NCBI GenBank assembly: GCA_035293105.1
Contig: DATDOV010000007.1
Span: forward strand, 5,121-69,120
Reading direction: 5' to 3'
DNA: 64,000 nt
Source of the DNA: Blastocatellia bacterium
GTDB lineage: Bacteria; Acidobacteriota; Blastocatellia; UBA7656
Below, piece by piece: positions 31,216 through 48,772 of the stretch (its first letter is position 1; each line of letters opens with the position of its first letter). The translations under genes and the position numbers were made by a program. The notes under the pieces were generated by a model. That model had not been told where the DNA came from and ran no database searches. It was given only the letters and a program-made list of their open reading frames with translations.

Positions 31216-31472
31216 TACCTCCTCACCCAGGCACTGAGATTCACTTTCCTATCCTTAATAGACGCCAATTAGCACTGAGATCATTCAGATCCCCCGAGAC
31301 TATTTGGACCGTACCGAGAGCCCGCGGAGAATCAACCCAACGAGATCGGTAAAAGCAGAGGAGCGTCACTCATCAGAAGGCAGTTGTCCAGCACCTATCG
31401 ACGCGATTCTCGAATCGCGAAGGAGGCGATAGAACAATCGGCTTGGACTGAATCGACGTCGATCGAGCGGCG

Positions 31473-31868
31473 TATCAAGACCCGCTGTCAGTGGATGTGA
31501 ATGGCAACGTCGTAGGCAGCCAATAACACTTGGCTTTCGGTGAGGATTTCGCGGGTTCCGGCAGTTAGGAAAAACATCACTTCACATCATACGCACGGGA
31601 CGCTGACATTGGCACTGCTAACGCACCAAACGGGCAGTACGTGCCCACGACGGGTCGATTTCTGCGCGTTGATCCTCCCCTTGGCCGAGAGGGCGCAAGC
31701 CGGAATCGATGTAGTTATGTTCAGAACGATCCGATTGGGGCGACGGATCCGCTTGGGGTTACGAGTTGTCTTGCTTCTGACGCCGCAGACGAACCACTTT
31801 GCGGATACATCCATGTATGCGTCGACAATGCGCTCGACCAGAGTGCTCGATGCGCTCTCTGTGCATAG
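31473..31868 (+). pseudogene. Degenerate Rhs repeat-associated core fragment
   Basis: One frame reads YQDPLSVDVNGNVVGSQ*HLAFGEDFAGSGS*EKHHFTSYARD...GRFLRVDP...NRCSYVQNDPIGATDPLG, with stops at 31524 and 31566. Confidence 0.8.
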
Positions 31869-31921
31869 CGCGCCCGGCGTTCGGTCAACTCAACGATGGG
31901 GCGAACTCTCCGCCCTGGGTG

Positions 31922-32255
31922 CTCAGTCCATATGCCCTGACATCGCGTGTTCGGGCATTCTCCTCGTCCGCGTCAGACCGTAAGACTTCAACTGGCGATA
32001 GAGTCGTGCTCGGCGAGATTCCCAGAATCTCCGACGCCTTGCCTTGCCATCCCGTCTGTTCCAGCACGTTGATTATCTGTTTTTTCTTCAGTTCATCAAG
32101 ACTCCCCGGCTGATGGTCGTCGCCGTTATTCGAAGCCGGACTCAGCCGCACATTGGTCCTCAACTCGATCGGCAGATCGTCCGGCGTGATCTCCTCGCTC
32201 GACGCCAGGATCACCGCGCGCTCGATCGGGTTCCTAAGCTCGCGCGTTGCCCGGC
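31922..32255 (-). pseudogene. 334-bp copy of the 3' end of the sigma54 response regulator gene; putative attachment-site scar 2
   Basis: Aligns to 49127-49464 with +1, -3 and -2 nt indels. Encodes 'ELRNPIERAVILASSEEITPDDLP...GISPST'. Confidence 0.9.
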
Positions 32256-32475
32256 GTTGACGTTCAAGCCTCACTACCGACCGAGTTTCCGCCTTGTGAG
32301 GATAGCGCGATCCGGGTCGTGAGATCGAAGTGGCAAACAGATACTGCTGTATTTAATGCGCGAGACCGAAAGATTGAAGCCGGTCTTGGCGGCCCACACA
32401 AGCTTCGCAAGTCTTGGCACCACCGACCACCGGGACCTTCGATGGCTTCTCGAGTTGCGGACTCATCATCACAGG

Positions 32476-32553
32476 TTAGTTCTTGAGGCGTGCGTCAAAG
32501 AACTTGATCGTCGGCTCGAGGAACGCGGGATCAACTTCTCGCCCTGACCCTGG
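32476..32553 (-). pseudogene. 3' fragment of an alpha/beta hydrolase gene paralogous to 40133-41197
   Basis: Reads PGSGREVDPAFLEPTIKFFDARLKN* versus PGSGREVDPAFFEPTIKFFDGRLRKLMR*. Confidence 0.8.
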
Positions 32554-32649
32554 GCCCAGGCCACCGGCCCACCACCGCTCGCTGGCGAAAGGGGCCCGCG
32601 ATATAATAAGGCGTCCTTAAGAACTCCGAACTTCGAATTCCGAAATCGT

Positions 32650-35600
32650 ATGACCCCGGAACGGTGGCAACAAATCGAGCAGGTGTTTCAATCGGCGCTG
32701 GCGCGTGAGCCGGAGCAGCGCGGCGCCTTTTTAACCGACGCCTGCGCCGGCGACGAGGCCCTGCGTGACAAAGTCGAGGCGATGCTTCAGGCGCACGAGC
32801 AGGCGGGAAGTTTCCTCCGGGCTCCAGTGGCTGAGGTGGCGGCGGAGTTGATAGCCCAAGAGGACGCTCGATGGGCGGTAGGGGCCACCATCGGCCCCTA
32901 CCAGATCGTGCGCCAGTTGGGCGCGGGCGGGATGGGCGATGTTTACCTGGCCCGGGATAACCGGCTCGGGCGCAGCGCGGCGTTGAAAGTGCTGCCTGAC
33001 TATTTCACCAACGACAAAGACCGAATGCGACGCTTCCATCAGGAGGCGCGGGCGGCGTCGGCGTTGAGTCATCCGAACGTGGCCACGATCTATGACATCG
33101 GAAAAGCGGAGGGGACCACGTACATCGCGATGGAATATGTCGAGGGACAGACGCTGGAGGCCAAGATCAACGGGCAACCGCTGGAAACCACTGAAATCCT
33201 TGACATCGCCGCGCAGGTAGCCGACGCCTTGGATGAAGCGCACGCCAAAGGCATCGCGCACCGGGACATCAAACCCTCGAACATCATGATCACGCCTCGC
33301 GGTCAAGCGAAGGTGCTGGACTTTGGACTGGCGAAGATGACCCGACGCGAGGAGCAGAGGATTGGAAGCGACATCTCCATCCAAACGGAAACCGAACCGG
33401 GTGTGGTGATGGGCACGGTGGCGTACATGAGCCCGGAGCAGGCATTGGGGCATGAGGTGGACGACCGCACCGACCTCTTCAGCTTGGGCGTGGTGACGTA
33501 TGAGATGACCACGGGCCGACGGCCATTCGCCGGGACCACCACTGGCGAGACACTCGATCAAGTCATCCACGCGGAACCAGAGGCGATTGCGCGATTGAAC
33601 GCGCGCGCGCCCGCCAAGTTGGAGCGCATTATAGGCAGGTGCCTGGAGAAGGACCGGGAGCGGCGCTATCAGTCAGCGCACGAGCTACTGACTGATTTGA
33701 GGAATCTCAAGCGCGATCTGGACTCAGGCGAGCGCGCCGCCCGCCCGACCGCCAGCGCGGAGTATCTTCTCAGCCAGATCAAACATCATGCGCGTGGTGC
33801 GCTCATCACAGTGGTCGCGCTCGTCATCGCCGCTGCCCTGTTCTTCTACTTCCCCCGCGCGCCGGTGTTGACCGAGCAGGATACGATTCTGCTGGCCGAT
33901 TTCGTAAACACGACCGGCGATCCGGCATTTGACGGCACACTCAAACAGGGCTTGGCGGTGCACTTGGGACAGACCCCGTTTTTGAATATCTTCCCTGACG
34001 AGCGCGTACGCGAGGCATTGCGCTTGATGGGCCGCCCGGCTGATGAGCACCTGACGCGGGACGTCGGCCGCGAGATCTGCCAGCGGCAGGGACTCAAGGC
34101 GATGATTGTCGGCTCGATTGCCAGCCTCGGGAGTCGCTATGTGCTGACGCTGGAGGCCGTCAACGCGCAGACCGGAGAGGTGATGGCGCGCCAACAGACC
34201 GAAGCTGCTTCCAAAGAGCAGGTCTTGCAGTCGCTGGGGCAGGCCGCCTCCGCGTTGCGCCCGAAGCTGGGCGAATCGCTCCGATCGATTCAGAAGTTCG
34301 ACATCCAGCTTGCCCAGGCGACGACCTCATCGCTGGAGGCGCTCAAAGCCTATTCGCTGGGAGGGGAGAGATTCGGGAGTTACCTTGAAGCCATACCGTT
34401 TTTTGAACGCGCGACAGAGTTGGATCCGAATTTCGCGCTCGCCTACAGCGTACTATCAGATCTCTACAGCAATACCGGCCAAGCAGAGCGGGCGGCTACG
34501 GCTGCGGAGAAAGCCTTTGCTTTGCGGGAGCGCGTGACGGAGCGCGAAAAGTTCCGCATCGCCGGCACCTACTACTTATATGCGACCGGAGAAATAGACA
34601 AGGCCATCGAAACGTTCGAAGTGTGGAAGCAGGTCTATCCGCGAGACACTGTCCCGACCGGTGCTCTGGCTATGTGGTACCTCCCAATCGGGAAATTCGA
34701 GAAGGCAGTGGACGAGGCGCGCGAGGCCATGCGCCTCACTCCGAATTACAATCCCCGTTTTTATCTGTCGTCTGCTCTCTATCGTCTCAATCGTTTCGAC
34801 GAGGCCAAAGCGACGATTGAGGAGATGTTTCAGCAGAAGCGTGACAATATGCTCTTGCACATCAACCGCTATTTCATAGCTTCTATTCAGGGTGACACCG
34901 CCGCGATGAGGCAACAGCTTGATTGGCTGGAAAGCCATTCGAGCGAGTACCGGTCGCTCCACCTGCAAAGCAGGACAGCGGCGAGCGCGGGCCAGTTGCG
35001 CCAGGCGCGACGTTTCTCGCGCCAAGCTGTAGAGTTGGCGGTCCGGCGTAATTTCAAAGACCTGGCCGCTTTTTTTGTGGCCGCTCAGATGGTGAATGAA
35101 GCAAGCTGTGGTTTGTGCGAGCAAGCCAGACAGAGGGCACAGGCTCTGGCACTCTCGCGGGCTAGTTTTGTGCAGGGCTACATTCCAATGCTCCCGAGTG
35201 TGGCCTACGCGCTGGCTTTGTGCGGTGACATCACCGAGGCGCAGAAGTTGGTCGACGAGCTGGCGAGGCGGTATCCGAAAGCCACGTTGGTGAACGCCAT
35301 CTACCTGCCGGTAATTCGCGCGGCGATCGAACTCCAGCGCGGGAACGCCGAGCAGGCGATTCAATCATTGGAAGTGGTGACTCCATATGAGGGCGCGTGC
35401 TGGTTGATGCCCCCCTATCTGCGCGGCCAAGCCTATCTGCGCAAGCGGGCAGGGACGGAAGCAGCAGCCGAGTTCCAAAAGATTCTCGATCACCGGGGCT
35501 GGGATCTCTATTCTTCTTGGTATGTGCTTGCGCATCTGGGGCTGGCGCGGGCGGCGGCGCTCACGGGCGACCGTGTCAAAAGCCGCCAAGCATATCAAGA

Positions 35601-35682
35601 GTTCTTCGCCTTGTGGAAAGATGCCGACCCGGACATTCCCATCCTGATCGAAGCGAACAGAGAATACCAGAAATTGAAGTGA
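32650..35682 (+). CDS. Hanks-type Ser/Thr protein kinase with TolB-like and TPR regions
   Basis: 'GAGGMGDVY', 'AALK', 'HRDIKPSN', 'DFG', 'GTVAYMSPE'. N-terminus 'MTPERWQQIEQVF...ACAGDEALR' is typical of ECF-linked kinases. One TM segment. Confidence 0.95.
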   Translation: MTPERWQQIEQVFQSALAREPEQRGAFLTDACAGDEALRDKVEAMLQAHEQAGSFLRAPVAEVAAELIAQEDARWAVGATIGPYQIVRQLGAGGMGDVYLARDNRLGRSAALKVLPDYFTNDKDRMRRFHQEARAASALSHPNVATIYDIGKAEGTTYIAMEYVEGQTLEAKINGQPLETTEILDIAAQVADALDEAHAKGIAHRDIKPSNIMITPRGQAKVLDFGLAKMTRREEQRIGSDISIQTETEPGVVMGTVAYMSPEQALGHEVDDRTDLFSLGVVTYEMTTGRRPFAGTTTGETLDQVIHAEPEAIARLNARAPAKLERIIGRCLEKDRERRYQSAHELLTDLRNLKRDLDSGERAARPTASAEYLLSQIKHHARGALITVVALVIAAALFFYFPRAPVLTEQDTILLADFVNTTGDPAFDGTLKQGLAVHLGQTPFLNIFPDERVREALRLMGRPADEHLTRDVGREICQRQGLKAMIVGSIASLGSRYVLTLEAVNAQTGEVMARQQTEAASKEQVLQSLGQAASALRPKLGESLRSIQKFDIQLAQATTSSLEALKAYSLGGERFGSYLEAIPFFERATELDPNFALAYSVLSDLYSNTGQAERAATAAEKAFALRERVTEREKFRIAGTYYLYATGEIDKAIETFEVWKQVYPRDTVPTGALAMWYLPIGKFEKAVDEAREAMRLTPNYNPRFYLSSALYRLNRFDEAKATIEEMFQQKRDNMLLHINRYFIASIQGDTAAMRQQLDWLESHSSEYRSLHLQSRTAASAGQLRQARRFSRQAVELAVRRNFKDLAAFFVAAQMVNEASCGLCEQARQRAQALALSRASFVQGYIPMLPSVAYALALCGDITEAQKLVDELARRYPKATLVNAIYLPVIRAAIELQRGNAEQAIQSLEVVTPYEGACWLMPPYLRGQAYLRKRAGTEAAAEFQKILDHRGWDLYSSWYVLAHLGLARAAALTGDRVKSRQAYQEFFALWKDADPDIPILIEANREYQKLK

Positions 35683-35871
35683 GCGCGAATCTCAAGGCCC
35701 CTCGAACCAGCCAGTGACTCAATCCTGGTGGGTGTTCGGTCGCTGAGTACCTGCAATTCATAAATACGCTGACAAACCACCGATGGACGCAGATGAACAC
35801 AGCTTAGCCGCAACAAGAGCTTCGACGCTGGGAAACTGCTTAATACCCCAGGCGGGAGAAGGTGTGAAAAA

Positions 35872-36020
35872 AAACGCAAAGGCGCAAAGACGCAAAGTCA
35901 ACAGAAACACGGTCGCTACGGCGCTGGTGGTAAGCACTGCAATTCGCAGGACTTGGTTCGGTCTTCTCTGGTTTCAGCTCTATCGCCTTTGCGTCTTTGC
36001 ACCTTAGCGTCTTTGCGTTT
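35872..36020. repeat. Inverted octamer arrays (CGCAAAGA/CGCAAAGG type, REP/BIME-like)
   Basis: aaacgcaaaggcgcaaagacgcaaag (35872-35897) faces ctttgcgtctttgcaccttagcgtctttgcgttt (35987-36020). Confidence 0.7.
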
Positions 36021-36081
36021 CGATTCTTTCGCAGCTTCGGGAGCCCGGGGATTGTTCACGCCTGCCTACACAACCGGAGGA

Positions 36082-36122
36082 CCCCTCACCCCATGCCCCT
36101 CTCCCCGCTCGCGGGGAGAGGG
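36082..36122. repeat. REP-like hairpin CCCTCTCCCCGC-TC-GCGGGGAGAGGG with a CCCCTCACCCC lead
   Basis: Perfect 12-bp stem in the spacer between convergent genes. Confidence 0.7.
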
Positions 36123-36148
36123 TTGACGAGTGGGGCGCCGCCCGACGT

Positions 36149-36570
36149 TCATTCGAGCGGCTCTACGTAGATGGGAACTGCCTCAACAGACCCCTCCATT
36201 GAGAAAAGGGCAATCCCAGCAGGATCGTGGAAGTCTGCCCTGAAGGGACCGGCAGACTGTATCGCCGTCAGCGTCCAGATTGAGCGTCGCTCTGATTTTC
36301 ACACTCTGGAACGGCGTAGTTGGGTCTTGCGAGAGCATCACAAAGGTGAGTGCAAAACGGCGTTTGCCTATCCTCTCCCAGACCTCATGGCCTGAGGTTG
36401 CGCCCGGCACGTTGGTCGACATTGTCAGGCATCCATCCCGGCATGACCTTGACTTTCCAGGCGCCAACCAATGACTTGTGGCCGCTGGGCCCGTTGGACT
36501 GAACGGCCGCGACAGATGACACAACAAATATGGCGATAGCTGCGGTACAAAGTACTCTCTTCGCGTTCAT
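36149..36570 (-). pseudogene. Frameshifted gene for a small secreted, beta-rich hypothetical protein
   Basis: AAAGGAG RBS and signal peptide MNAKRVLCTAA...LVGAWKVKV. Continues in a second frame (DG...GHEVWERIGKRRFALTF...VKIRATLNLDADGDT) and a third (AGPFRADFHDPAG...VEPLE*). Confidence 0.65.
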
Positions 36571-36619
36571 AGCCTCTTCTCCTTTCAATGCTTTAGTTGC
36601 TGCCTCGGTTGAGGAGTTC

Positions 36620-37060
36620 CAACTCAACGGGAGGTACGAGGAGGCGTTGGCTGAATGTCGGACGATGTTTTCGCTGTTGGGGAATGAAGAAGTCGTGGAG
36701 GCCATCGAGCAGGGCTATGCGGAGTCAGGCTACAGGGGCGCCATGCGCCGGGGGGCCGAAAGTCTGGTAGCGCAATCGAAGGCAAGGTATGTCGCGCCGA
36801 CTTCTATCGCACTGTTTTATATTCACGCTGAGGAGACGGAGCAGGCCATCGAGTGGCTTGAAAAGGCCTACGAGGAGCGCGATCCAAATCTACACCGGGT
36901 GGGGATAGAACCGGATTGGGAGAGCTTGCATCCTGACCCGCGCTTCCAAGCCCTATTGCAGCGGCTCGGTCTTCCAGAGGTCATACCTAAGAACAATGCT
37001 TTAAGCGAGGCCGTTGCGTCCCTACGAGTAGAGCGCAACTTGGCCTCGCTCAAACCGTAG
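36620..37060 (+). pseudogene. C-terminal TPR fragment of a kinase/wHTH-TPR regulator, 5' part missing
   Basis: 'GRYEEALAE...AIEWLEKAYEERDP...DPRFQALLQRLGL' resembles the C-terminus of 37833-39617. No plausible start; left boundary approximate. Confidence 0.7.
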
Positions 37061-37070
37061 AGCGTGAGTC

Positions 37071-37646
37071 TCACCGACCGGGGTGCCGCCCGTGAGGATC
37101 GAAGACCATTAGGGAGACGTTCCCGTAAGGGTAGGGCCTGTCTCCCGGGTACTCCGCATCGATCTTCAGTTTCAGACCATCGAGACGTCCGCCGTGTCCG
37201 TGCCCGGCTGCTTTGTAGCTTCCGGCGAAGGTCGCAAGATTAAACGGACCGTACCAGATGCCTTCCCATCTTTCTTCATCCGATGCGGGCCACTCAAAAG
37301 TGCCCCAGCAAGGGCCAGTCATGTTCTCGTCAAGGTTGCAGTTCAGCGTCGCCGTTGCGCTTGGGCCAAAAAGACCGGCAGCCGGCCCTTCCAGCACATA
37401 GTTGTATTCCGAAACTCGTCCACGGATCTTCATCCGACTTCCTGGCCCGCAAGGACCACCTGGGCAGGAAATCTCACCAGGGTCGATCACGCCGACGAAG
37501 AACTCCTGACCGGTGGCGCTCAGGAACTTTGGCCGGTGTCGCGTCTCCACGGACGGTTTAGAGATACCCGCTGATGCATTGTGGGAGATTGTGCTTCCCA
37601 TAAGTATGAGTGCTAACAGCAGGATTATAGAAGCTCTTAGTTTCAT
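37071..37646 (-). CDS. Secreted hypothetical protein
   Basis: AAAGGAG RBS, signal peptide MKLRASIILLLALILMG; Cys/Gly-containing, beta-rich body. Confidence 0.7.
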   Translation of the reverse strand: MKLRASIILLLALILMGSTISHNASAGISKPSVETRHRPKFLSATGQEFFVGVIDPGEISCPGGPCGPGSRMKIRGRVSEYNYVLEGPAAGLFGPSATATLNCNLDENMTGPCWGTFEWPASDEERWEGIWYGPFNLATFAGSYKAAGHGHGGRLDGLKLKIDAEYPGDRPYPYGNVSLMVFDPHGRHPGR

Positions 37647-37832
37647 AGCTGCTCTCCTTTCGTTCATTCATGCTGATTACCGGGCTCAGCCTTTGGTTTT
37701 CTTATTGTCCAATTGCGAGAGCCTTCGCGAGAATTCGATCTCGATCTCGCAATTACTCATGAGATTAGCAGGACGTGGTATGATGATCTTGACAGAACCC
37801 GGAAAAAACTCTGCAAAGTTCGTGACAGGCTC

Positions 37833-39617
37833 ATGGCACCTAATGGCGGGCAAAGCTATCGGTTTGGTGACTTCACCCTGGAAGCGAGCGAGCACCGCCT
37901 ACGGCGAAAGGGTGAGGAGGTGCCTCTCCGACCCAAAGCCTTTGAGACTCTCCTATACCTTGTCGAGCGCCATGGTCACCTTGTCGAAAAAGATGAATTG
38001 CTTGAAAGGTTGTGGGCGGAAACGGCCGTGACGGAGGGTGTGCTTACGCATTGCATCACAGAAGTGCGCCAGGCGTTACAGGACGAGGCTCACAATCCGC
38101 GATACCTCAAGACTATCCCGCGCGTCGGGTACAAGTTCATTGGCAAGGTCGAAAAGATTGCCTCGGCCGCACAAGCCCCCGAACCTGTGAAGACCGGGAC
38201 GCACGCTATAGCCGTGCTGCCGTTTGTAAACCTGTCTGCCGAACCAGAGAACGAGTACCTCTGCGACGGCCTGGCCGAAGAACTCATCAACGGGCTGACC
38301 AAGGTCAGGGAACTCCGAGTCGTGGCTCATAGCTCGTCTTTCTCGTTCAAAGGTCAGTCTGTGGACGCGCGTGAGATTGGCTGGAAGCTGAACGTCGGAT
38401 GGGTAGTGGAAGGAAGCGTACGCAAGGTTGCCAGCCGCGTGCGCATCTCGGCTCAACTGATCAATGCTGCGGACGGCTACCATCTGTGGTCAGAGCAGTA
38501 CGACCGTCAGATGGAGGATCTGTTCGCCATCCAGGATGAGATCTCGCTTGCGATACTCGAGAGGTTGAAGGTCAAGCTGTTGGGGCGGGAAAAGGCATCG
38601 CTGGTAAAGCGGTACACGGAGGACTTGGAAGCCTATCACCTGTATCTCAAGGGCCGTTACTTCTGGCACAGGCGCTACGAAGGGTTCATGCAAAAAGCCC
38701 AGGAATCCTTTCAGCAAGCGATCGAAAGGGACCCGCTCTATGCGCCGGCCTACACGGGATTGGCTGACACATACAATTCGCTGGGGGTGTGGGGCTTCAT
38801 GGCTCCAGGGGATGTCTTCCCCAGAGCGAGGGCAATGGCACACAAGGCTCTGGAGATTGATGACACCTTGGGCGAGGCTCACGCCTCGTCGGCTTTCGTC
38901 AACTTGTTTTACGACTGGGACTGGGCGGCCGCCGAGCGCGGATTCAAACGAGCCAGTGAACTGTCCCCCGGTTATGCGCTCTCTCACCTCTGGTATGCTC
39001 ACTACTTGAGTTTAGTGGGCCGATTTGATGAGGCCATCGGCGAGGCGAAACAAGCGCAGTTTTTCGACCCCCTGTCGCCCATCATCAACGCCAATGTGGG
39101 ATGGACGTACTACCTGATCCGAGAATACGGCCGGGCAATAGAAGAACTGCGGAAGACGCTTCATCTAGACCCTCACTGCGGCATGGCCCACTTGTACATG
39201 GGGTATACATATGCACAAGCAGGAAGGTACGAAGAGGCCATCGAGGCGCTTCAAAGGGCGATAGATACAACAGAAAGAATGTCTTGGACCGCTGAATCAC
39301 TCGGATACGTTTACGGCCTGGCTGGCAAACGAGAAAGAGCCGAGAAGATACTCCACGAATCGGAGACGCTATCGAAGGAGCGATATGTTCCCTCATCGGC
39401 GCTTGCGCTGATCTATCTGGGATTGGGTGAGCACGACAAAGTTTTCGAGTGGCTCGACAGAGCGTACGACGAGCGTGATGCGTTGCTGCCCTGGCTCAGC
39501 CAGATGCCCGAGTTTGACGCGGTGCGATCAGATCCACGATTCCGAGACCTGCTCCGCCGCATGTGGCTCGCTTCGTCACCTCACCTCTTCGAGCGCCCTT
39601 CCAAAACGTCGGCGTAG
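37833..39617 (+). CDS. CadC-like winged-helix DNA-binding protein with TolB-like and TPR domains
   Basis: 'YRFGDFTL...LRPKAFETLLYLVERHGHLVEKDELLERLW...YLKTIPRVGYKF', 'IAVLPFVNLS', TPR repeats. Confidence 0.9.
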   Translation: MAPNGGQSYRFGDFTLEASEHRLRRKGEEVPLRPKAFETLLYLVERHGHLVEKDELLERLWAETAVTEGVLTHCITEVRQALQDEAHNPRYLKTIPRVGYKFIGKVEKIASAAQAPEPVKTGTHAIAVLPFVNLSAEPENEYLCDGLAEELINGLTKVRELRVVAHSSSFSFKGQSVDAREIGWKLNVGWVVEGSVRKVASRVRISAQLINAADGYHLWSEQYDRQMEDLFAIQDEISLAILERLKVKLLGREKASLVKRYTEDLEAYHLYLKGRYFWHRRYEGFMQKAQESFQQAIERDPLYAPAYTGLADTYNSLGVWGFMAPGDVFPRARAMAHKALEIDDTLGEAHASSAFVNLFYDWDWAAAERGFKRASELSPGYALSHLWYAHYLSLVGRFDEAIGEAKQAQFFDPLSPIINANVGWTYYLIREYGRAIEELRKTLHLDPHCGMAHLYMGYTYAQAGRYEEAIEALQRAIDTTERMSWTAESLGYVYGLAGKRERAEKILHESETLSKERYVPSSALALIYLGLGEHDKVFEWLDRAYDERDALLPWLSQMPEFDAVRSDPRFRDLLRRMWLASSPHLFERPSKTSA

Positions 39618-39654
39618 GTCTTCTATCGGCTGGTGGCGCTGAGTGGCTTGGATA

Positions 39655-39683
39655 ATAACGGCTCCTTAAAAGGAGGCCGTTAT
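39655..39683. terminator. Hairpin between convergent units; possible terminator
   Basis: ATAACGGCTCCT-TAAA-AGGAGGCCGTTAT. Confidence 0.45.
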
Positions 39684-39750
39684 GAAGATGTTTTGTTAGA
39701 TCAGTCAAGCAAAAGTCAGAGCCCTTACTTGATCTCAAACGCGCTTGCCC

Positions 39751-40128
39751 TCACGGGATGTAGTTGAGAGCCTCGGGCAGTGGATCGACCATAGGCACCT
39801 CAAAGAAGCGCGCCGGTTCCGGGTGGATGATCATCTTGCCCTTGGAAGCGAAAAAGACCGCAATCTGCTCCTGAGCGCCAAGGGAGACCGCACCGAACAT
39901 GGTGAACAGCGGCATGAAGGAGTGCGGGTTCTTCGGCAGCGCGGGATTTTCGGCAAAGGCGAGATCGTGCCGGTAGCAAACCCCGCGGTCCGTCAAGTCG
40001 CCCGCGTGCAGCATTGCCGTCGTCGCTGGGTTAGGCACGCTTTGGTCACCTTTAGCGAACTGACCGATCACCGACTTGGCGGGCACCCCGACAAGCGGGG
40101 CTTTCCGGAGGTGAGGCGCGTATGCGGC
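39751..40128 (-). pseudogene. 3' fragment (~125 codons) of a paralog of the lipase-like gene at 44893-47169
   Basis: About 90% identical by hand count to 44893-45268. Begins within 5 bp of the hydrolase stop at 40133. Confidence 0.88.
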
Positions 40129-40132
40129 ACCT

Positions 40133-41197
40133 TCATCTCATCAACTTCCTCAGGCGGCCATCAAAGAACTTGATCGTCGGCTCAAAGAAGGCCGGATCAA
40201 CCTCCCGCCCCGAGCCTGGCGAACCGGCGAACCCATGCCCGACGCCAGGGAGCCGGACAAAGGTGACACCAACGCCAGCATTCCTCAACGCTGCCACGAG
40301 CAGTTCGCTCTGGTTGATGGGCACCATGTTATCGCCCTCGCCGTGGATTACGAGGAACGGTGGGTCCCCGCTGTCGATATAGGTGAGAGGGCTGGCACGA
40401 GGGGCTCGTTTCAGCACTGGCGGATCGGCTAACGAACCTCCCAGAAAAGTCGCCCACGCCAACGTCCAGTAGAAATACGGCGTGCTCTCGCCGCCGTATT
40501 TCGAAATCAGAGTGGCAATGCTTGTCGAGCAAGGATTGTCGTTGAAGACGATTGGGGGGCCTCGCGTGACGTCCACTGGCGCGAACCAGTCGGCGACTGC
40601 CTGCACTTCATCGGAGACCCCCAGGTTCTCGGTGCCTTCGAGGTCAGCCACTCCAGGCGATACCCCGAGCAACACGGCTAGATGCCCACCCGAGGAAGCG
40701 CCGAGCGTGCCAAAGCGATTGGGATTGATCCCATATTTGCCAGCGTGTTTGCGCAGCCACCGCACTGCCGCTTTCACGTCATGTACCTGTGCAGGAAAGG
40801 AGAGTTCTTTTGGACAGCCGGCCGTGTGGTTTGCGAGACGATAGCCGACGCAGGCCACGGCATACCCTCTTGCCGCAAAAGAGCGTCCAGGACAAGTGTC
40901 CTTTCTGCCCTCGAACCACCCGCCGCCGTGAAGGAAGATAATCAGCGGCGATGGTTGCTCAGTCCTTTGCGGAAGGTAGAGGTCGAGGAGAAGCTTCTTG
41001 CTGACTCCGCCAAACTGGTAAGAGGCATACTGCAGGTCCCGAAGAACTGTGACCTCAGTTGGGCCAATGTCAGGACGGACTTGCGAGCGCACCGCGCTGC
41101 CAGGCGGGCTCACGCTTAGCAGACAGATAGTCAATGTCACGATCGTACAGGTTCTCGGCCAGCACTCCGACAACGTCTTGTCCCGCCTTCCGTTCAT
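40133..41197 (-). CDS. Secreted alpha/beta hydrolase (esterase, BD-FAE/HSL-like)
   Basis: 'LHGGGW', nucleophile 'GASSGG', 'HGEGDNMVP', 'GVGHG'. GGAGG RBS before ATG 41197. Confidence 0.9.
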   Translation of the reverse strand: MNGRRDKTLSECWPRTCTIVTLTICLLSVSPPGSAVRSQVRPDIGPTEVTVLRDLQYASYQFGGVSKKLLLDLYLPQRTEQPSPLIIFLHGGGWFEGRKDTCPGRSFAARGYAVACVGYRLANHTAGCPKELSFPAQVHDVKAAVRWLRKHAGKYGINPNRFGTLGASSGGHLAVLLGVSPGVADLEGTENLGVSDEVQAVADWFAPVDVTRGPPIVFNDNPCSTSIATLISKYGGESTPYFYWTLAWATFLGGSLADPPVLKRAPRASPLTYIDSGDPPFLVIHGEGDNMVPINQSELLVAALRNAGVGVTFVRLPGVGHGFAGSPGSGREVDPAFFEPTIKFFDGRLRKLMR

Positions 41198-41288
41198 GAT
41201 ACACCCCTCCCGTTTAGCCTGTCTCAACGCGTCAATAATCTCGGGCGGTCACCCGAGCGAGACGTGTCCGCAGCAGGCGCCGCGCTAC

Positions 41289-42908
41289 TCACAGGCGGCT
41301 GACCGTAACTCCGCCAAAGACGACAGGGTTATTGAACTGAAGAGTCAGTCTCATCGAGACGGCGCGCATGCCGAATACAATTTCGGCGGGCCCCGGCCCC
41401 TCGTCCCTGAACGGCTTAATGGTGCAGAGACCAACCAGACCGGACTTATCTGTTGTCGGGGCAAGAGTCAGCTTTACATATTCCTCCTTCCCGGCCGTGT
41501 TAACGTATGTCACCAACGCAACTAGATTCACCGGAAAATACTCCGAGATGCTAGACCAAAGGGAGCTGGCCTGGACAGCAATCAGATACTGCCCCCCGCC
41601 CGGAGGCAACTCTGCATACAGATAAACCTGCCCTTCGTTACCGAGGAGAAGCACATCTTTCTGCAACATTAGGTTCAACGAATTCTTGGTGGTCATAAAG
41701 ATGCCGCCAGCATTCGTATTTCCCGCAGCGTAACCGGTCTGGCCCTGCTGGTACATGGGTCCCGGCTTGGTTGGGGAGAAGTGGACCGGGGCGCTCCAAA
41801 TCTCCGACAGCGTCTTACCTGCTCCAAAGGCAGAAGGGACTGTATTCCCGACCGGCGTCCCATCCAGGCTCTCTGTCTTCAACTGGGCCAATTGCCTTCC
41901 CGCACTGGCAGCGGCGCTTTCGAGTGAGGCCTTAGTCGCGGGATTGCCCAAGAGCGAGTCGAGCATCGTCGTTCGTGTGGGCGGGGTCGTCACCTGATTC
42001 AGCACAGCAGCAGATGGGGTGGGGAACTGACCCAGCTTTCCCGCTTCGGGCATCGGGATCGGTATTGGCGTTGCGGCGGGGCTCTTTGGATTGGGGATGT
42101 TAATGGGCGTTGCGGCTGATCCGCCTGCCGGCGTCGCCAGGGATATTCGGGACAAGACCACTCCGTTTTCCCACTCAATGCGATTGGCTTTGCCGTTTGG
42201 GTCAATCCCTACTCCGCCCTGGGCTGATCCAGAACCTGTGTTGCCGGTCCAGCTCGCAGTGATGTTCTGCCCCTTGAGCGTCCCGCTCCCCTTCTCATTT
42301 ATCGCTGCCACGTACCAGATGAACTGCTCTCCGTTCTGCGTGATCTCATAGACCTGCCCCGTCGTGCTCGTCCACTTGCCTGAAATGTCTATTACGCCCT
42401 TTGGCACAGCCGGCCCAATTGAGCCGGGCGGTGCCACTTTTGCGGTCGGGTCGGTTTGCACAATCGGCGGAGTGGGGGCAGTGGGGCTGGAGGCGCTGCC
42501 CGTCTTCCTGAAGAAGACTACGCCGTTGTCCCACTCAATCCGAGTTGCCGCTCCTGAAGAATCAACCTCGGTGATGTTTCCTTTAGCCGAGCCTGAGCCG
42601 CCCGGGTCAGTCCACGAAGCGCTAATGCCGCTCTGTGACAGAGTGCCGCTGCCCTTCTGGTTGATCTTGGCCGCAAACCAGGTAAACTGGTTTCCGCTCT
42701 GGGTGATCTCATAGTCAACGCCGATATTGCTGCTCCATTTTCCTGAAATGTCACGGACCTGTCCCGCCGCAAGCTCAGTCGGCAGAAACGTCTTTGCAGA
42801 GCTGCTGCCGCACAGGTAGCTGCCCGCAAGCAGATAAATCGCGCAAGCCGCAATCACGGCGAGCATCGGCCTGCTTCTTGCAATCGTTTTCGTGATGCGA
42901 TTTAACAT
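41289..42908 (-). CDS. Secreted modular protein with two ~82-aa 'DISGKW' modules and Pro-rich linkers
   Basis: AGAAAGGAGGTGA RBS and signal peptide. Modules at 42507-42752 and 42147-42389. Confidence 0.75.
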   Translation of the reverse strand: MLNRITKTIARSRPMLAVIAACAIYLLAGSYLCGSSSAKTFLPTELAAGQVRDISGKWSSNIGVDYEITQSGNQFTWFAAKINQKGSGTLSQSGISASWTDPGGSGSAKGNITEVDSSGAATRIEWDNGVVFFRKTGSASSPTAPTPPIVQTDPTAKVAPPGSIGPAVPKGVIDISGKWTSTTGQVYEITQNGEQFIWYVAAINEKGSGTLKGQNITASWTGNTGSGSAQGGVGIDPNGKANRIEWENGVVLSRISLATPAGGSAATPINIPNPKSPAATPIPIPMPEAGKLGQFPTPSAAVLNQVTTPPTRTTMLDSLLGNPATKASLESAAASAGRQLAQLKTESLDGTPVGNTVPSAFGAGKTLSEIWSAPVHFSPTKPGPMYQQGQTGYAAGNTNAGGIFMTTKNSLNLMLQKDVLLLGNEGQVYLYAELPPGGGQYLIAVQASSLWSSISEYFPVNLVALVTYVNTAGKEEYVKLTLAPTTDKSGLVGLCTIKPFRDEGPGPAEIVFGMRAVSMRLTLQFNNPVVFGGVTVSRL

Positions 42909-42996
42909 GACGTCACCTCCTTTCTGAGGATCTGAATTGAAAACCTCGCTGGCAGAACAACCCCGTCCGCATCGAGTCGCGACGTTACACGGCTGG

Positions 42997-44461
42997 CTAC
43001 CTGAAGAAGGTCACCCGTTATCCCAATCAATGCGAATCGCTCTGCCATTGGCGTTTACCCCAGTGATCTTTCCTTTAGCTGAACCTGAGCCGCCCGGGCC
43101 AGACCACGAAGCGGTGAGGCCATTCCCCGTTAATGTGCCGCTGCCCATCTGGTCTTGGCCGCGTTCCAGCTAAACTGGTTCCCGCTCTGAGTGATCTCGT
43201 AGGCCACCCCTATAGACCTGTCCCATTTGCCTGAGATGTCAGGCAGGGAGGGCTTCACGGGACCTGGTCCGGCTTCACCGGGTGCCTGTCCCGCTTGAGG
43301 CGACCTGACGCCTGAGACGCAATCCTTATTCGGGACGGCGTTGGGGATACTGTATTTCAGATAGCAGCGCGCCTGTGGCCCCTGCACCCCTGCGCGAACA
43401 TAGGTGAAGGCCTTGCAGTCTACGTCGGCTTCGCAGGCATAGCGGCAATCTTCGGGTCCGCCGCTCACCCAGAAGCTCTTGTAGTCGAGACCGGGCCGGT
43501 CCGTGTTGTCTTCTAATCCCCCTGCCATAGGTCTGACCCCTACGACTTTCGGAGGCGCAGGACCGGCAGGCTTAGCCGCTCCAGCTTGCCAGGAGGGCTG
43601 TCCGGCAGGGGCGGCACCTCCGACCTTTGGCGGAGGTGGAGGTGGAGGCCCGGTCCATCGGATCTCGAGAGAGGATGCCATCTCGTCCCAGCCGTACTTG
43701 TTCAACTCGTACCACGCCGCTGAAGGACCACCTGCCCCAGGCAAGGTAATGCACTTGCCGGCGCAGCCGGTTTCGTCGCAAAGCGTCACCGCTATGTTCT
43801 TGTGAGATGGGTGCACCCATTCGGACTCGTTGTCGATGAAGTCAGGGATCGTTGGGTACTTTATCTCAGTTGCAAACAACGATTCGGGCAGGGGGAAGAA
43901 CGCGCCGTTGTACAATTCATGCGCGAGGAATACGCCAAGTGGTTCTCCAGCATCCTTGCTAAATACTATCAGAGACGAACAATTGTCATTCTCCCCGGAA
44001 ACTGGCAAATCCTTGTTGGAAGCCAGATGCGGCTTGGCGTAAGCACCGATGAAATGAGGATGCTGGAAAAGAATAACGCCTACTCGTTCGCCGACCTGGA
44101 TGGAAGAGATCCTGTCGTTCATATTCAAAGCGGCCCCGATGCCGCCGACGACGGCTGGCGTCGAGCCAGCCTGGCCGGCGGGTTTGTCGTCCGTTACCGC
44201 TGATAAATCGGGCACCAGCCGCTGCCTCATCCACGACGGATCGAGGCGGAAGGAAACGTGCACGCCAACGAAGTCCGAATGCTCGTAGACGATCACCTCA
44301 TAAGGGTCAACAGTCTTCGGATAATTAATCTGTGAGCTGGCCGCGCTGCCGGGCGCATAGCTCCCGCCAAGCAGCCACAAACTGAGGCACGCCGCAATGG
44401 CCAGCCCCCGCATGAGGCTCGTCTTCGCTCTGCTCTTTTTCATAACCAACTGATAAGCCAT
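42997..44461 (-). pseudogene. Secreted beta/gamma-crystallin-like + PAN/apple + 'DISGKW' module protein; last module frameshifted (translated ORF ends at 43130)
   Basis: Crystallin-like 'VIVYEHSDFVG...MNDRISSIQV'. PAN-like 'NTDRPGLDY...CRYACEADVDCKAFTY...CYLK...CVSG'. A 4-nt deletion near 43150 and a 1-nt deletion near 43013 relative to the intact modules. Confidence 0.7.
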
Positions 44462-44892
44462 GACCTTGCTCCTTTCTATGTCAACCGAGATGCAGGGGAA
44501 CGGGCAGCCCTAGAAAAACGGTACATTGTAAGTCCTGTGCGCCCCCCCACAGTCTGTGACCGCTGGCACATGCCGCGAGCCGTGGAACACACGTCGGGAG
44601 GCGCCAGAGGAGACTTCGTCCGAGCACAGCCGGGCGTGCCGTACACTTCTGAAGCCGCACTATATCCCGCGCACCAACATCGCCACCGCCAGCGTCAGGG
44701 CAATAATACTCAGGATCCTATCCAGAGCTGCAGCGCATCGGTCTGCCACAGATGGTTCATTATCAGAGAGGGTCAACTACTAAAACACCAAAGAGCACCA
44801 AAGAGGGGCAGGCCTGAGTTCTTGTCGCGACTGAATAGCAATGTCACAGTTGCGACCGATTGTGACATTTCTACTAGTCAAAACATGTTCCC

Positions 44893-47169
44893 TCACGGGA
44901 TGTAGTTGAGGGCCTCCGGCAGTGGATCGGCCATAGGCACGTGGAAGAACCGTGCCGGTTCAGGGTGGATAACCATCTTGCCCTTGGAAGCGAAAAAGAC
45001 CGCAATCTGCTGCTGAGCGCCAAGGGAGACCGCACCGAACATGGTGAACAGCGGCATGAAGGAGTGCGGGTCCTTCCGCAACGCGGGGTTTTCGGCAAAG
45101 GCGAGATCGTGCCGGTAGCACGTGGCGCGGTCAGTCAAGTCACCGGCGCGCAGCAATGCCGTCGTCGCCGGGTTAGGCACGCTTTGGTCACCTTTAGCGA
45201 ACTGAACGATCACCGACTTGGCGGGCACGCCGGCGAGTGGAGCTTTCCGGAGGTGCGGCGCGTATGCGACCGGAGTGCCCGACTGCATGACCCACTCCAG
45301 CTTTTCGAAGAAATCCTGGATCTCGATCGCTCCGGCGACCGTGTTGATCATCGGCGACTGAATAAGGGAGATGGTTCCGTCAGCCAGACGGACGGCCAGC
45401 GGCATGCCGTTCCTGAGCGGTATGTTCTCGTTGAATTGAGGAGGTGCGACGGCAACTCCCTCAATGTAGGTGATCCCTGGCGAGTTGATCAACGACGGGG
45501 TTCGCGTGGCTAGCAAACGGCCATTGATAATCCGGTTGCCGGGGGAAAACAGGAGATTCGCGGCTGGGCCGCCGGCGACGGTGAGGACTCCGGCCCGAAC
45601 ATTCGGCTCGACGGCGAGGAAGAGCGTGCCGTAGAAGCCGCCCATCGAGAATCCAACATAGTAAATACGGGAGGGTTTCAGGTCCCGTAGTCCGTCTCCG
45701 TCCACGTCCATACCGACCTTGATAACACGGACGAGTTGCATGAGGTCTGCAACGGTCTGCCGCAGACCGTCGCCCGTAGAGATGATCGCCCGCGGCCGGG
45801 CAGTCTGGAGGCCCTCGCTGGCGCCGATTTCGCCGTTGCCGTCCTGGTTAATGCCGCGCCCGCCAGCGGGGAATGTCACCGAAACGCCGTTGCTCTCGTT
45901 GACCGTCAGCGTCCCCAGCGGGCCTCTGCCGTGCCCGACGGCGTTGATCCCGATGGTGGCGATGCCCTGCGCCGCCATCGAAGCGGCAACATGGTTTAGG
46001 CTCAAGAAGCCGTCCTTGCTGAGAGTGACACCATGACCGTAGATCGCTATGGGCCATCCACCCGGAGGCATCGCGCCTGAAGGCAAGAACAGATTAAAGT
46101 AAATCTCGTTCACCCCTTGCACGGCTGGCACGCCAGTGCGTGTGTCCACTGGCGGAATGAACTCCCCAGGATGTACCTCATAGTCGGGTGAGAGGTACTT
46201 CCCGAAGGCAACCTGTCCCACTGCACCGGGGATGTTCCGCGGTAATGACACATCGACCGGGACTGCGGTGAACTTGGGCGGGTTGTCACCCGTCTGCTGG
46301 TTCCACGTGATGCCATTGACCTGATCGAGCGGAAAGACCGTCCGGCTCCCGCCGGGTCCCAGGTTGAAATCGGCGGGAGCAGGGGTAGCCGCCTTGATCT
46401 GATCCCGGATCTTCTCCAGGATGGCTGTCGCGCTATGCGTGGTGAACACACTGGCGCTGACGACCTCGCTCTTGGGCACGCCCGCTCTCCGCGCCGCGCC
46501 GAGAGCTTGGAGCAACCTCTTCCGATATTTTTTCAAGCCAGGATCGCCCGGCTGGCCTTCGCTGAGTTCTTGCCGGAATCGCTCAAACGCTTCGCTCGCC
46601 TCAACTGATGAACCATTCTGATCCTGCACGCCGCGGGTAACGATCAGCCCGTAGCGCGTATGCTGGTCCAGGAGTTCGTCCGACTCGACGTGAAGCGTGT
46701 TCGTCGCCGGGTCCCACACTACCTGATTGATGCCGATACGGCGGCCGCCCAGGTCATTGGGATCGAGCATGTCACCCAGGCTAACGAGAAAGACTGTCTG
46801 GCTAGTGACTGAGTTAACGTCGATCGGTCCGTCAAACGGAATGGAGAGTCGCGGCTGCAGATTGAACCCGTCCAGCGTGTTAATGACGTCCAGGTCTTCG
46901 CAGTCCGACGTCCGTTGGGAGCAGTCCGGCTTTGGCAGGTTGACCCTAAGCCCGGTGTTTTGACTCGGATCACGCACAGTGAACCGGTCGGCCGGAAAGG
47001 GACCTCCTGCAGGGGCGTCAAGATTGAACAGAGCGTGGATGGAGCTATCGTTAGAAGCTCTACCCTTAAAGAATGAAGCAGTAGTCAGGAGTAAGACGGC
47101 CGCCGACACCGCCAGGCAGCGGACGGTTAAACCCCTCAAGCTAATTGTTCGCAAACTTATCTCTCGCAT
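44893..47169 (-). CDS. Secreted Ig-like-domain + alpha/beta hydrolase (extracellular lipase-like) protein
   Basis: Signal peptide, 'GPFPADRFT', 'IYGHG', nucleophile 'GFSMGG', 'FAKGDQSVPN', 'DPHSF'. GGAGG RBS. Confidence 0.8.
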   Translation of the reverse strand: MREISLRTISLRGLTVRCLAVSAAVLLLTTASFFKGRASNDSSIHALFNLDAPAGGPFPADRFTVRDPSQNTGLRVNLPKPDCSQRTSDCEDLDVINTLDGFNLQPRLSIPFDGPIDVNSVTSQTVFLVSLGDMLDPNDLGGRRIGINQVVWDPATNTLHVESDELLDQHTRYGLIVTRGVQDQNGSSVEASEAFERFRQELSEGQPGDPGLKKYRKRLLQALGAARRAGVPKSEVVSASVFTTHSATAILEKIRDQIKAATPAPADFNLGPGGSRTVFPLDQVNGITWNQQTGDNPPKFTAVPVDVSLPRNIPGAVGQVAFGKYLSPDYEVHPGEFIPPVDTRTGVPAVQGVNEIYFNLFLPSGAMPPGGWPIAIYGHGVTLSKDGFLSLNHVAASMAAQGIATIGINAVGHGRGPLGTLTVNESNGVSVTFPAGGRGINQDGNGEIGASEGLQTARPRAIISTGDGLRQTVADLMQLVRVIKVGMDVDGDGLRDLKPSRIYYVGFSMGGFYGTLFLAVEPNVRAGVLTVAGGPAANLLFSPGNRIINGRLLATRTPSLINSPGITYIEGVAVAPPQFNENIPLRNGMPLAVRLADGTISLIQSPMINTVAGAIEIQDFFEKLEWVMQSGTPVAYAPHLRKAPLAGVPAKSVIVQFAKGDQSVPNPATTALLRAGDLTDRATCYRHDLAFAENPALRKDPHSFMPLFTMFGAVSLGAQQQIAVFFASKGKMVIHPEPARFFHVPMADPLPEALNYIP

Positions 47170-47815
47170 TGCTTCTTACCTCCTGCTTTGAAATCCAGTA
47201 CCATTGCCCCCACTCAGATCTATCCTTCGTGGGGCGCACGTTTTTTTTGTGTCTCGCCTAGTAACGCGCCGATTTCGCTCGAATCCCATCATCGGGGGAC
47301 GAGATTCCGTCTCATTCACCTCTCCGTAATAAACGGATGTAATTCCGGTCCCGCTAACCCCAATTTCGAGATGCCATCACGGCGATGTGCGGCCGCCATC
47401 AGAAGGCTGGTCCAGCGCTCCCATGTCTGACATTTCTGCTGTTCCCCGTCCGAACAGCTTGGCAGAATCGACCACGAGAATCGGGGCCGGAATCGAATTT
47501 CGCTCCACGACTCTGAAGCACCATGTGGCCCGCCCCGTTTGTTGTCCTTGGCCTAGTAACGGCCGATTTCGCCGGAATTCACAAGGGGCGAAAGATTCTT
47601 TGAGACGCAAACAGGATAGTGGCCTTTCTGGATTTCATAATTCCTCCTTCTATATTCTTTGAGGCGCTGGTTGAAGCTGGCCAGCCACCGGGTTTCACAA
47701 GGGTGGAATTGGTCTTGCCAACCAACTGCTTCGCCACCTCTCTTGCTCCATCTACTAACGCAAGAGTTTCAGGAGAATTCCCTCACGCCATGACGAAGTT
47801 CTTTTCGAGAGATCA

Positions 47816-48104
47816 CCTGGCAGGATGCTGAAAAACCCTGCTGCGCCCCCACCAACCCAGCGTTGGTGGTGTGGTGACTGTTGAGCTATACGAGTGTGTG
47901 CGAGCCGCTGCCCTCCACCGACCCTGTGTCGGCGGAGGCATGACTGAGATGGTAGTTAGCTTAGCGATCAGTCGTGATTCCACCGACGCAGGGTCGGTGG
48001 AGATCGCCCAGTAGCCTTGGGCGGCTTGTTTTCGGTGTCAGTCAGGGTTACCACCAACACGGGGTTGATGGAGAGTGAAACAACTTTTTCAGCGGCCTGC
48101 CAGG
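47816..48104. mobile_element. MITE-like non-coding element (~290 bp) with terminal inverted repeats
   Basis: CCTGGCAGGATGCTGAAAAA ... TTTTTCAGCGGCCTGCCAGG (18/20 complementary). Internal inverted pair CTCCACCGACCCTGTGTCGGCGGAG / TCCACCGACGCAGGGTCGGTGGAG. No ORF. Confidence 0.65.
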
Positions 48105-48172
48105 CAGGATTTGGTCAAAGTTGTTTATAATCGGGGGCAACAGGAGATGGCCTGCGGAGAGATAGGCAGCCG

Positions 48173-48772
48173 ATGACGAAACCATCGCCAGGAGAAATAA
48201 CTCAGCTGCTCATCGACTGGAGCCGGGGAGACCAAACGGCGCTGGACCAGTTGATGCCTTTGGTGTATGACGAGCTGCGCCGGCTGGCTCATCGGTACAT
48301 GCGCCGCGAGCGACCGGGCCACACGCTGCAAACGACGGCGCTGGTCAACGAGGTCTATATCCGGCTCATCGATCAGACGAAAGCGAATTGGCAGAATCGG
48401 GTCCAGTTCCTGGCCGTCTGCGCCATGTTGATGCGTCGCATCCTGGTCACGTACGCCCAGCGCCGGCGCTCTGCCAAGCGCGAGGGCCAGACGCTCCTGG
48501 TGTCGCTGGACGAAGCGGCGGTGGTATCCAAGGCGCGAGCGGCGGAAGTGATCGCCTTGGATGAGGCGCTGATGAGCCTGGAAGCCATCGACCCAAGAAA
48601 AAGCCGGATCGTGGAGCTGCGGTTCTTCGGCGGACTCACCATCGAAGAGACGGCGGAGGCCCTGCACGTGTCACATGCCACAGTCGAGCGCGAGTGGAAC
48701 ACGGCGCGGGCCTGGCTCTACTGCGAGATGACGCAGGGAGGGATGAGCGAGGGACTCCCCCGCGGGGTATAG
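48173..48772 (+). CDS. ECF sigma factor, kinase-associated type (ECF43 / TIGR02999-like)
   Basis: 'LMPLVYDELRRLA...HTLQTTALVNEVYIRL', 'SRIVELRFFGGLTIEETAEAL', 'REWNTARAWL'. Confidence 0.92.
   Translation: MTKPSPGEITQLLIDWSRGDQTALDQLMPLVYDELRRLAHRYMRRERPGHTLQTTALVNEVYIRLIDQTKANWQNRVQFLAVCAMLMRRILVTYAQRRRSAKREGQTLLVSLDEAAVVSKARAAEVIALDEALMSLEAIDPRKSRIVELRFFGGLTIEETAEALHVSHATVEREWNTARAWLYCEMTQGGMSEGLPRGV

Follow-up and report, generated by a model that had tools for sequence, protein, structure and literature searches.

How does an accessory region grow where classical mobile elements are almost absent? This question is raised by a 64,000-nucleotide (nt) stretch of contig C7 (hereafter, the window) from the 6.45-Mb genome of a Blastocatellia bacterium, the other contigs of which are labelled C8, C15, C69, and so on. 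In the window, a histidine kinase gene (HK) and the gene of its response regulator (R), together termed HK-R, are followed by a region in which orphan 3′ ends of genes lie among intact genes. Homologues of R carry Blastocatellia (Acidobacteriota) names in their sources. With a little better than even confidence, we read the 22 kb that follow HK-R on its downstream side as strain-variable cargo peculiar to this lineage and built up by serial homology-anchored imports, either through homology-facilitated illegitimate recombination (HFIR) or through single crossover. The observations are the repeats and their reproducibility, a signature of selection in the copies, a break in synteny, the absence of recombinases, and one joint with microhomology; who the donors were, in which order the events took place, and whether HFIR or single crossover acted are inferences.

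The window was compared with itself by self-BLASTN and a repeat search. Five orphan 3′ fragments derived from four genes were detected, namely R′ and R″ (from R), L′ (from a lipase-like hydrolase gene, L), E′ (from an esterase gene or an allele of it, E), and X (from a small open reading frame, g176). All are direct repeats on the same strand as the intact copy, lie downstream of it, and lack the 5′ part (Table 1). The R, L, and E pairs are on the minus strand and the g176/X pair is on the plus strand; no further copies of the repeats were present in the 6.45-Mb genome. A first-pass annotation, made from the letters of the window alone, had described a 3′ fragment of L of about 90% identity and one of E. 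Self-alignment recovered both and added the g176/X pair, and the anatomy that it had reported, namely minus-strand fragments downstream of intact copies with the stop codon kept and the 5′ part missing, was seen for L′, E′, R′, and R″. Its statement that the pairs interleave rather than nest also agreed with the marker order, E′ < L′ < E < L. The similarity ended 1–3 nt past the stop codon in L/L′ and R/R′, and perhaps ~20 nt past it in R/R″; such ends at or just after stop codons are expected if homologous genes had unrelated downstream contexts.

Table 1. Features of the window and independent contigs that cover parts of it (positions are those of the window).
Feature	Position	Strand	Description
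HK	50531–53197	−	GAF/PAS histidine kinase, conserved partner of R (Pfam)
R	49128–50534	−	Intact NtrC-type sigma-54-dependent response regulator (Pfam Response_reg, Sigma54_activat, HTH_8); repeated segment is the 3′ part, 49127–49464
R′	31922–32255	−	Displaced R 3′ fragment; 339 aligned nt, 92%
R″	27182–27397	−	Putatively older R 3′ fragment; 27182–27351 (170 nt, 92%) and a 41-nt patch, 27352–27392
L	44893–47169	−	Intact lipase-like alpha/beta-hydrolase, 758 amino acids (Pfam Lipase_bact_N/Big_5); repeated part 44890–45268
L′	39748–40126	−	Displaced L 3′ fragment; 379 nt, 91.0%, gap-free, E = 4e-151; stop codon kept (39751–39753)
E	40133–41227	−	Intact BD-FAE esterase (Pfam); probable start 41197, stop 40133–40135
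E′	32434–32553	−	3′ relic of an esterase allele; 32480–32553 matches E 40146–40219 (74 nt, 82.4%, E = 9e-14); own TAA at 32476–32478
E–L′ joint	40123–40132	−	Esterase-lineage homology up to ...CCGCA, L homology from CGCATACG; from the three-way alignment of E, E′, and L046 and the L/L′ alignment
g176	36530–37060	+	Small open reading frame, similar to C-terminal domain of T/kinase-family proteins
X′	36988–37091	+	Last 73 nt of g176 and 30 nt past its stop
X	48976–49075	+	Frameshifted 3′ fragment of a g176 allele, between sigma and R stop; 77% identical to X′
ECF sigma factor	48173–48772	+	Pfam Sigma70_ECF; convergent with R; 95% identical in L046, 90% in L047
P	43130–44461	−	Secreted repeat protein, PAN domain; cargo between L and E
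U	41289–42908	−	Secreted repeat protein; cargo between L and E
T	37713–39617	+	Trans_reg_C and TPR regulator; cargo between E′ and L′
O198	37071–37667	−	Secreted 198-amino-acid protein; cargo between E′ and L′
K	32650–35682	+	Ser/Thr kinase with TPR; cargo between E′ and L′; 89% nt identity to L046
TG	27442–31215	−	TPR/DUF3857/transglutaminase protein; cargo between R′ and R″
Contig L044 (ENA ERZ27254795)	38866–54145		99.7%
Contig L051 (ENA ERZ27254860)	39700–41032		Across the E–L′ joint; nine single-nucleotide polymorphisms (SNPs) and a 1-nt deletion inside L′
Contig L054	23064–36114		Includes R″, TG, R′, E′, and K
Contig L055 (Logan SRR3989295)	32198–39861
Contig L052 (JGI 3300025160)	30888–32747
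Contig L056 (JGI 3300002124)	44449–49413

The way in which the copies diverged was examined by counting codon differences according to Nei-Gojobori and testing neutrality with a binomial test. R and R′ differed by 19 synonymous and 3 nonsynonymous changes (ratio of nonsynonymous to synonymous divergence, ω, 0.04; synonymous divergence, dS, 0.32; p = 6e-10), R and R″ by 11 and 3 (ω 0.06, dS 0.38), R′ and R″ by 10.5 and 3.5 (ω 0.08, dS 0.36), and L and L′ by 19.8 and 15.2 (ω 0.22, dS 0.25, p = 4e-5). Across the pairs, p values against neutrality ranged from 6e-10 to 2e-4. Eight synonymous differences against four amino acid changes were counted for E and E′ over 25 codons. Neutral decay after a local duplication would push ω toward 0.5 or more, and neutral change after truncation accounts for at most ~4–22% of the divergence. 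The ω values of 0.04–0.22 therefore mean that nearly all of the divergence arose while the copies sat in working genes, and the substitution pattern suggests that they diverged as functional alleles in separate lineages.

These results bear directly on another explanation, one old local tandem duplication with redundant copies decaying neutrally in place. It would explain why the repeats are direct and local; it is nevertheless highly improbable, since the synonymous bias and the binomial tests contradict it, the markers do not run in colinear fashion (E′, X′, L′ versus E, L, X), and the similarity ends at stop codons rather than continuing into the flanks. Neutral decay had been named in the first-pass annotation as an alternative to recombination, together with assembly artefact, and neither survived the comparison.

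An artefact produced by strain mixtures in a metagenome-assembled genome deserved attention, as the genome resembles a metagenome assembly made at k=141 (the terminal overlap of C8 is 141 nt) and chimeric contigs occur in related samples. Independent contigs (L044–L056) were recovered via exact-protein look-ups in ENA, Logan, and JGI assemblies. The junctions E–L′, L′–T, R′–E′–K, TG–R″, and sigma–R recurred at 99–100% identity in L044, L051, L053, L054, L055, L052, and L056, the sources being ERZ27254795, ERZ27254860, ERZ27254861, SRR3989295, SRR3989296, 3300025160, and 3300002124. The same junctions in independent metagenome assemblies from other samples are not an assembly artefact. In addition, L051, which represents another strain, has SNPs of its own, and the joints do not lie inside repeats. 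An artefactual origin is thus scarcely conceivable. The chimera in question, L052, had been considered as a variant of TG and was rejected: its first 432 nt (L052:1–432) belong to an unrelated gene with a PAS domain, joined to window 30888 onward at a shared 28-nt word. It serves as a caution for reading L048 and L049, two contigs described below. C8 (26,282 nt), both ends of which are identical over 141 nt, probably represents a circle, either a replicon or an element, that was assembled at k=141.

We then compared the surroundings of HK-R with those in relatives. HK had a match in 24 of 24 genomes of the same family at 59–78% identity, and R orthologues (75–82% amino acid identity) adjoined HK in all 12 of the related-genome regions that were fetched. 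One conserved eight-gene block is located 3′ of HK-R in 10 related genera. In the present genome, this block sits on C69:7880–17969 behind unrelated genes, including a phosphofructokinase-like gene, and none of the genes of 21992–49000 was found near HK-R in the 12 downstream regions of relatives. Therefore, the 3′ end of R is a lineage-specific breakpoint. Everything downstream of it is variable cargo, and the position of the block on C69 reflects either a rearrangement of the chromosome at the R 3′ end or an insertion of very large size there. The GC content of the island (0.53–0.60) is slightly lower than that of the flanks (0.58–0.64), a drop that is not decisive. The S9 peptidase of the left flank showed no synteny with any window gene in five relatives.

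The two R fragments are located 17.2 kb (R′) and 21.9 kb (R″) from the anchor R, and decay grows with this distance. R′ carries three small indels: deletions of 2 nt and 3 nt, and an insertion of 1 nt by which the recognition helix of the helix-turn-helix (HTH) domain is put out of frame. In R″, an internal deletion of 247 nt is seen. This worse decay of R″ is consistent with growth by accretion beside the anchor. R and R′ are mosaic: a stretch of ~120–130 nt near the R′ 5′ end is identical (49333–49452 versus 32120–32244) and the remainder shows a dS of 0.52 and an ω of 0.015, which suggests that the identical stretch came from later gene conversion. All three R ends have a C-terminal extension in common that is absent in five of five other family genomes aligned. 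Facing R′, and converging on its 3′ end, is an unrelated relic of an Rhs/YD core end at 31473–31983 on the plus strand (...SYVQNDPIGATDPLG and a short C-terminal tail, with in-frame stops), which is 42–54% identical in amino acids to Rhs-type genes on C50, C51, C16, C78, and C26. C50 holds at least six Rhs-type core ends at 2.5–6 kb spacing, a classical displacement array.

In L′, the open frame comprises 125 codons, and the differences from L are distributed throughout, with no identical core. The protein encoded by L′ is 90% identical to L, versus 66% for the best of ~4,000 database homologues. Taken with the extension common to the R ends, this indicates that the donors were close relatives, roughly at the genus level. 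L itself was not found in 40 relatives (none of the same genus) except for one N-terminal match.

The esterase pair was interpreted with the help of L046 (Logan SRR22388038), a contig of a relative with 80–95% nt identity. Its order is U, an intact esterase-PAN fusion, an antisense 3′ fragment of T (53 codons), K, a secreted-protein gene, and sigma, i.e., the same modules as in the window in a different order. The L046 esterase has an E′-type 3′ end: E′ is closer to it (85%) than to E (81%; the gene call of E in L044 has 354 amino acids), and the homology of E′ to the fusion extends to 32434 as a ~45-nt downstream extension without a counterpart in E. Hence, E′ probably was not displaced from the present E; judging from these alignments, it is probably an older relic of another esterase allele. 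E most likely came in with the event anchored in L, at the end of its cargo, and this would account for the interleaving of the pairs. The proposal in the first-pass annotation that the locus grows by repeated recombination anchored in gene 3′ ends is thus sustained by the synonymous bias and by the stronger decay of R″, and its use of E and E′ as an example probably does not stand.

At the joint between E and L′, similarity to L starts 6 nt beyond the E stop codon. The esterase and L homologies overlap there by a microhomology of 4–5 nt (CGCA/CCGCA); inspection of the junctions for microhomology had been proposed in the first-pass annotation. The joint has the features of a typical illegitimate joint, and it is the only one with examinable partners.

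We also searched for machinery that could have made the joints. A genome-wide six-frame search with PF00589 gave four matches for tyrosine recombinases, none of which was on C7. Pfam scans of the island open reading frames and six-frame scans of the three largest gaps revealed no recombinase or transposase, and Pfam scans of the cargo found no phage or conjugation genes. No attC-like inverted repeat was present in the island; the sole inverted pair reported in the window, 21802–21982, is outside it. Self-BLAST placed no palindrome at the fragment borders. The term integron-like, applied to the locus earlier, is consequently an analogy only, given no integrase, no recombinase relic, no attC-like repeat, and multi-gene cargo of mixed orientation. 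The likeness to integron arrays lies in the directional accretion beside a fixed point, with older units further off. The locus differs from them in having no IntI, attI, or attC and in its multi-gene units with their own regulators, integron cassettes being mostly promoterless, single-ORF units in one orientation.

Phage 21 and e14 insert in the 3′ end of icd and carry an element-borne replacement end. The points of resemblance to the present locus are a hybrid intact gene, the native 3′ end at the far end of the element, mostly synonymous differences, and similarity up to the stop codon. Here, in contrast, there are no integrase or phage and integrative-conjugative-element genes, the pairs are both nested and interleaved, and a core-like stretch occurs only in R/R′. 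We weighed degenerate site-specific integrative elements that target gene 3′ ends and bring a substitute end, with an integrase that was lost or acts in trans. The anatomy of R/R′, an identical core at the 5′ side followed by an almost purely synonymous substitute end up to the stop codon, is what such elements would leave. Contig L048 (JGI 3300002124) reads like their empty site: window 53059–49333 is joined to 32120–28838, 100% identical to the window elsewhere, in the order R 5′ part, identical stretch, R′-type end, and TG, without the 17.2 kb. L048 could be a real R × R′ deletion and thus an empty site, or else the repeat may have led to a misjoin, and L056 of the same sample ends inside the R/R′ identical stretch. 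An empty-site R would moreover be frameshifted in the HTH, L/L′ has no identical core, the cargo contains no phage or conjugation genes, and the four PF00589 matches of the genome are all on contigs other than that of the island. A circular form would place sigma and K ~1.1 kb apart; a circle is unneeded as an explanation of the sigma/kinase order, since the kinase of L046 is also upstream of sigma on the same strand. Taken together, site-specific elements are a very unlikely source of the scars.

A related idea dispenses with the integrase. The displaced 3′ ends might act as portable direct repeats through which multi-gene cassettes exit and re-enter by RecA-type recombination alone, an integron-like system that would be recombinase-free and anchored on the 3′ end of the conserved regulator. 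If this were true, L048 would be an empty site with a frameshifted R, repaired by the substitute end of the cassette, and contig L049 would be a circle or tandem junction of an L-P-U-E unit. L049 (ENA ERZ27254865) opens with 46 nt of the E end, followed by ~110 nt of an L′-like third allele and then by L-type sequence, P, and U; it may represent the junction of a tandem or of a circle, or it may be chimeric. We regard such portability as quite improbable.

A sequence of homology-anchored imports is the reading that we prefer, and it may be outlined as follows. In each event, DNA of a diverged relative (about the same genus; dS roughly 0.25–0.5) would bring the 3′ part of a shared gene together with new downstream genes. 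One end would be set by homologous recombination inside the shared gene, and the other by illegitimate joining at a point of that gene slightly further downstream (HFIR); in the alternative, single crossover would integrate a fragment that had become circular. The product would be an intact hybrid gene, the new cargo, and then the old 3′ end of the resident gene as an orphan. At R, at least two events would have occurred, R″ being displaced first and R′ second. At L, one event would have brought the cargo P-U-E and left the relic L′; its far end would have been cut in the downstream linker of the esterase, and codon 633 of the resident L would be where it was attached. At g176, one event anchored from the other side would have left X. 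E′, left over from another esterase allele, would already have been beside K before the L event, and the pairs would interleave because the intact E arrived inside that event. Laboratory work provides precedents: HFIR junctions usually show 3–10 bp of microhomology (PMC3240628), and gene-end duplications of 109–950 bp arose in E. coli when a circular molecule bearing a truncated gene end integrated by single crossover (PMC3240628). ComEC and DprA are encoded in the genome, which fits DNA uptake and is not diagnostic.

Several points weigh against this outline. The mosaic of R and R′, identical over ~120–130 nt and then at a dS of 0.52, is unpredicted by simple HFIR, and later gene conversion must be assumed. 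Microhomology could be examined at one illegitimate joint only. E′ is inverted relative to K in comparison with L046, which calls for additional rearrangements. That this lineage acquires DNA horizontally by transformation is an unproven assumption, for which the presence of ComEC and DprA is not diagnostic. Finally, no collection yielded a donor, meaning an R′-, R″-, or L′-type 3′ end that completes an intact gene in its native context, whether by a search of 5.8 billion proteins with L and R, by 90% clusters, or by a degenerate 36-nt pattern run over JGI metagenome contigs. One member of these clusters, P0243 (51 amino acids), was irrelevant, as it came from a eukaryote-like contig.

In a rival reading, which the first-pass annotation had also offered, whole island variants were stacked and later trimmed. 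Two or more tandem diverged islands with full R, L, and E, placed side by side by unequal or single-crossover homologous recombination, could have coexisted before illegitimate deletions left only 3′ ends. The synonymous-biased divergence fits this stacking equally well, the non-colinear order of E′, X′, L′ versus E, L, X requires several events under any model, the E–L′ microhomology looks as that of a deletion joint would, and L046 shows that alternative versions of the island exist. Stacking is nonetheless unlikely. It needs several independent deletion endpoints within 1–3 nt of stop codons (L′, R′), and all five of the five survivors are 3′ ends located downstream, although random deletions should leave 5′ and internal pieces too. 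None of the 24 same-family genomes showed a tandem second HK, nor did any of the 12 downstream regions examined contain a second fragment of R.

The cargo units comprise 1–10 genes on both strands and include regulators and a sigma factor. X, the fragment of the fifth pair, also lies downstream of its intact copy. X/X′ as a multicopy element resembling repetitive extragenic palindromes was ruled out, since the pair is unique in the genome. g176 is 34% identical in amino acids to the C-terminal 116 residues of T (39222–39569) and also resembles kinase/T-family C-termini on C42, C70, C22, and C65. As far as these similarities indicate, g176 may represent that C-terminal domain, either standing alone or truncated. 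U and P have a repeated module in common (63% amino acid identity over 43 residues; DNA 72–74%), with repeats at 42504–42753/42997–43241 and 42277–42389/42640–42752. A 39-nt indel distinguishes U between assemblies (539 amino acids here versus 526 in L044).

The modules also occur in other arrangements in relatives. The segment upstream of K that is common to L046 begins at window 32608 (region 32554–32650; L046:3006–3216), and an antisense 3′ gene fragment abuts the left boundary of the K module in both genomes, E′ here and the T fragment in L046. The left edge of the K module thus appears to be a recurrent recombination joint. In a second relative, L047 (Logan ERR15087770), the sigma gene (90% nt identity) is convergent with a 400-amino-acid sigma-54 activator that has no receiver domain and is 42% identical to R. 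The sigma module travels between contexts too. Elsewhere in the genome, other local partial gene copies were observed beside intact ones on C70, C66, C51, C15, C20, and C60 (80–95% nt identity, ω 0.02–0.19); these include 5′ and 3′ pieces, are not all downstream, and lie in some cases within Rhs arrays. Imperfect intergenic palindromes of 80–110 nt were found at 3876–3977, 5233–5316, 14855–14937, 47913–48002, and 63634–63740, two of which are alike (3877–3979 and 63628–63743). Terminators are one possible identity for these palindromes, and a small family of repeats is another.

Among known systems, the closest likeness is to the C-terminal displacement of Rhs genes (Jackson et al. 2009, PMC2935791) and to T6SS (type VI secretion system) arrays of V. 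cholerae (PMC5361080), in which an intact gene is followed by orphan 3′ ends in the same orientation, as here. In these loci as well, new material enters beside a conserved anchor, older ends are pushed downstream, and no integrase is involved. For the effector-immunity arrays of the T6SS, a sequential displacement model invokes HFIR and notes the likeness to integrons without an integrase (PMC5361080). The displaced ends of Rhs and T6SS loci are, however, different toxin domains with immunity genes, and diversification is the point. In L′, R′, and R″, by contrast, the encoded domains are those of the intact genes, with ~90–95% amino acid identity (3 nonsynonymous changes among the R ends). 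None of the genes concerned is a toxin gene; they encode a regulator, a lipase-like hydrolase, and an esterase. What is new is the cargo between the copies.

HFIR and single-crossover integration (PMC3240628, with references to Acinetobacter, S. pneumoniae, and P. stutzeri) have the same one-sided anchor and partial gene-end duplication as seen here, and a short microhomology such as that at the E–L′ joint. They differ in scale: the laboratory events are ~1 kb, versus inserts of 4.7–17 kb in the window, which are natural, repeated, and inferred from scars only. The minimal mobile elements of Neisseria (e.g. PMC3082526) are similar in that cargo without mobility genes is swapped by homologous recombination in conserved neighbours. 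Their conserved genes are on both flanks and the exchange is clean, whereas only the HK-R flank is conserved here and each exchange left a scar.

The locus is most likely a fresh instance of a known process, with displacement scars at non-toxin genes. Formation of such scars, familiar from the toxin loci of Rhs and T6SS, extends to regulatory and hydrolase genes of an ordinary kind, and they can be used as markers for ordering acquisition events. Since the leftover direct repeats are substrates for deletion, duplication, and gene conversion, the locus stays unstable. It provides a clear, datable natural record of how an accessory region in an uncultured soil Blastocatellia can grow almost without classical mobile elements, by repeated homology-anchored capture of foreign alleles with their neighbours.

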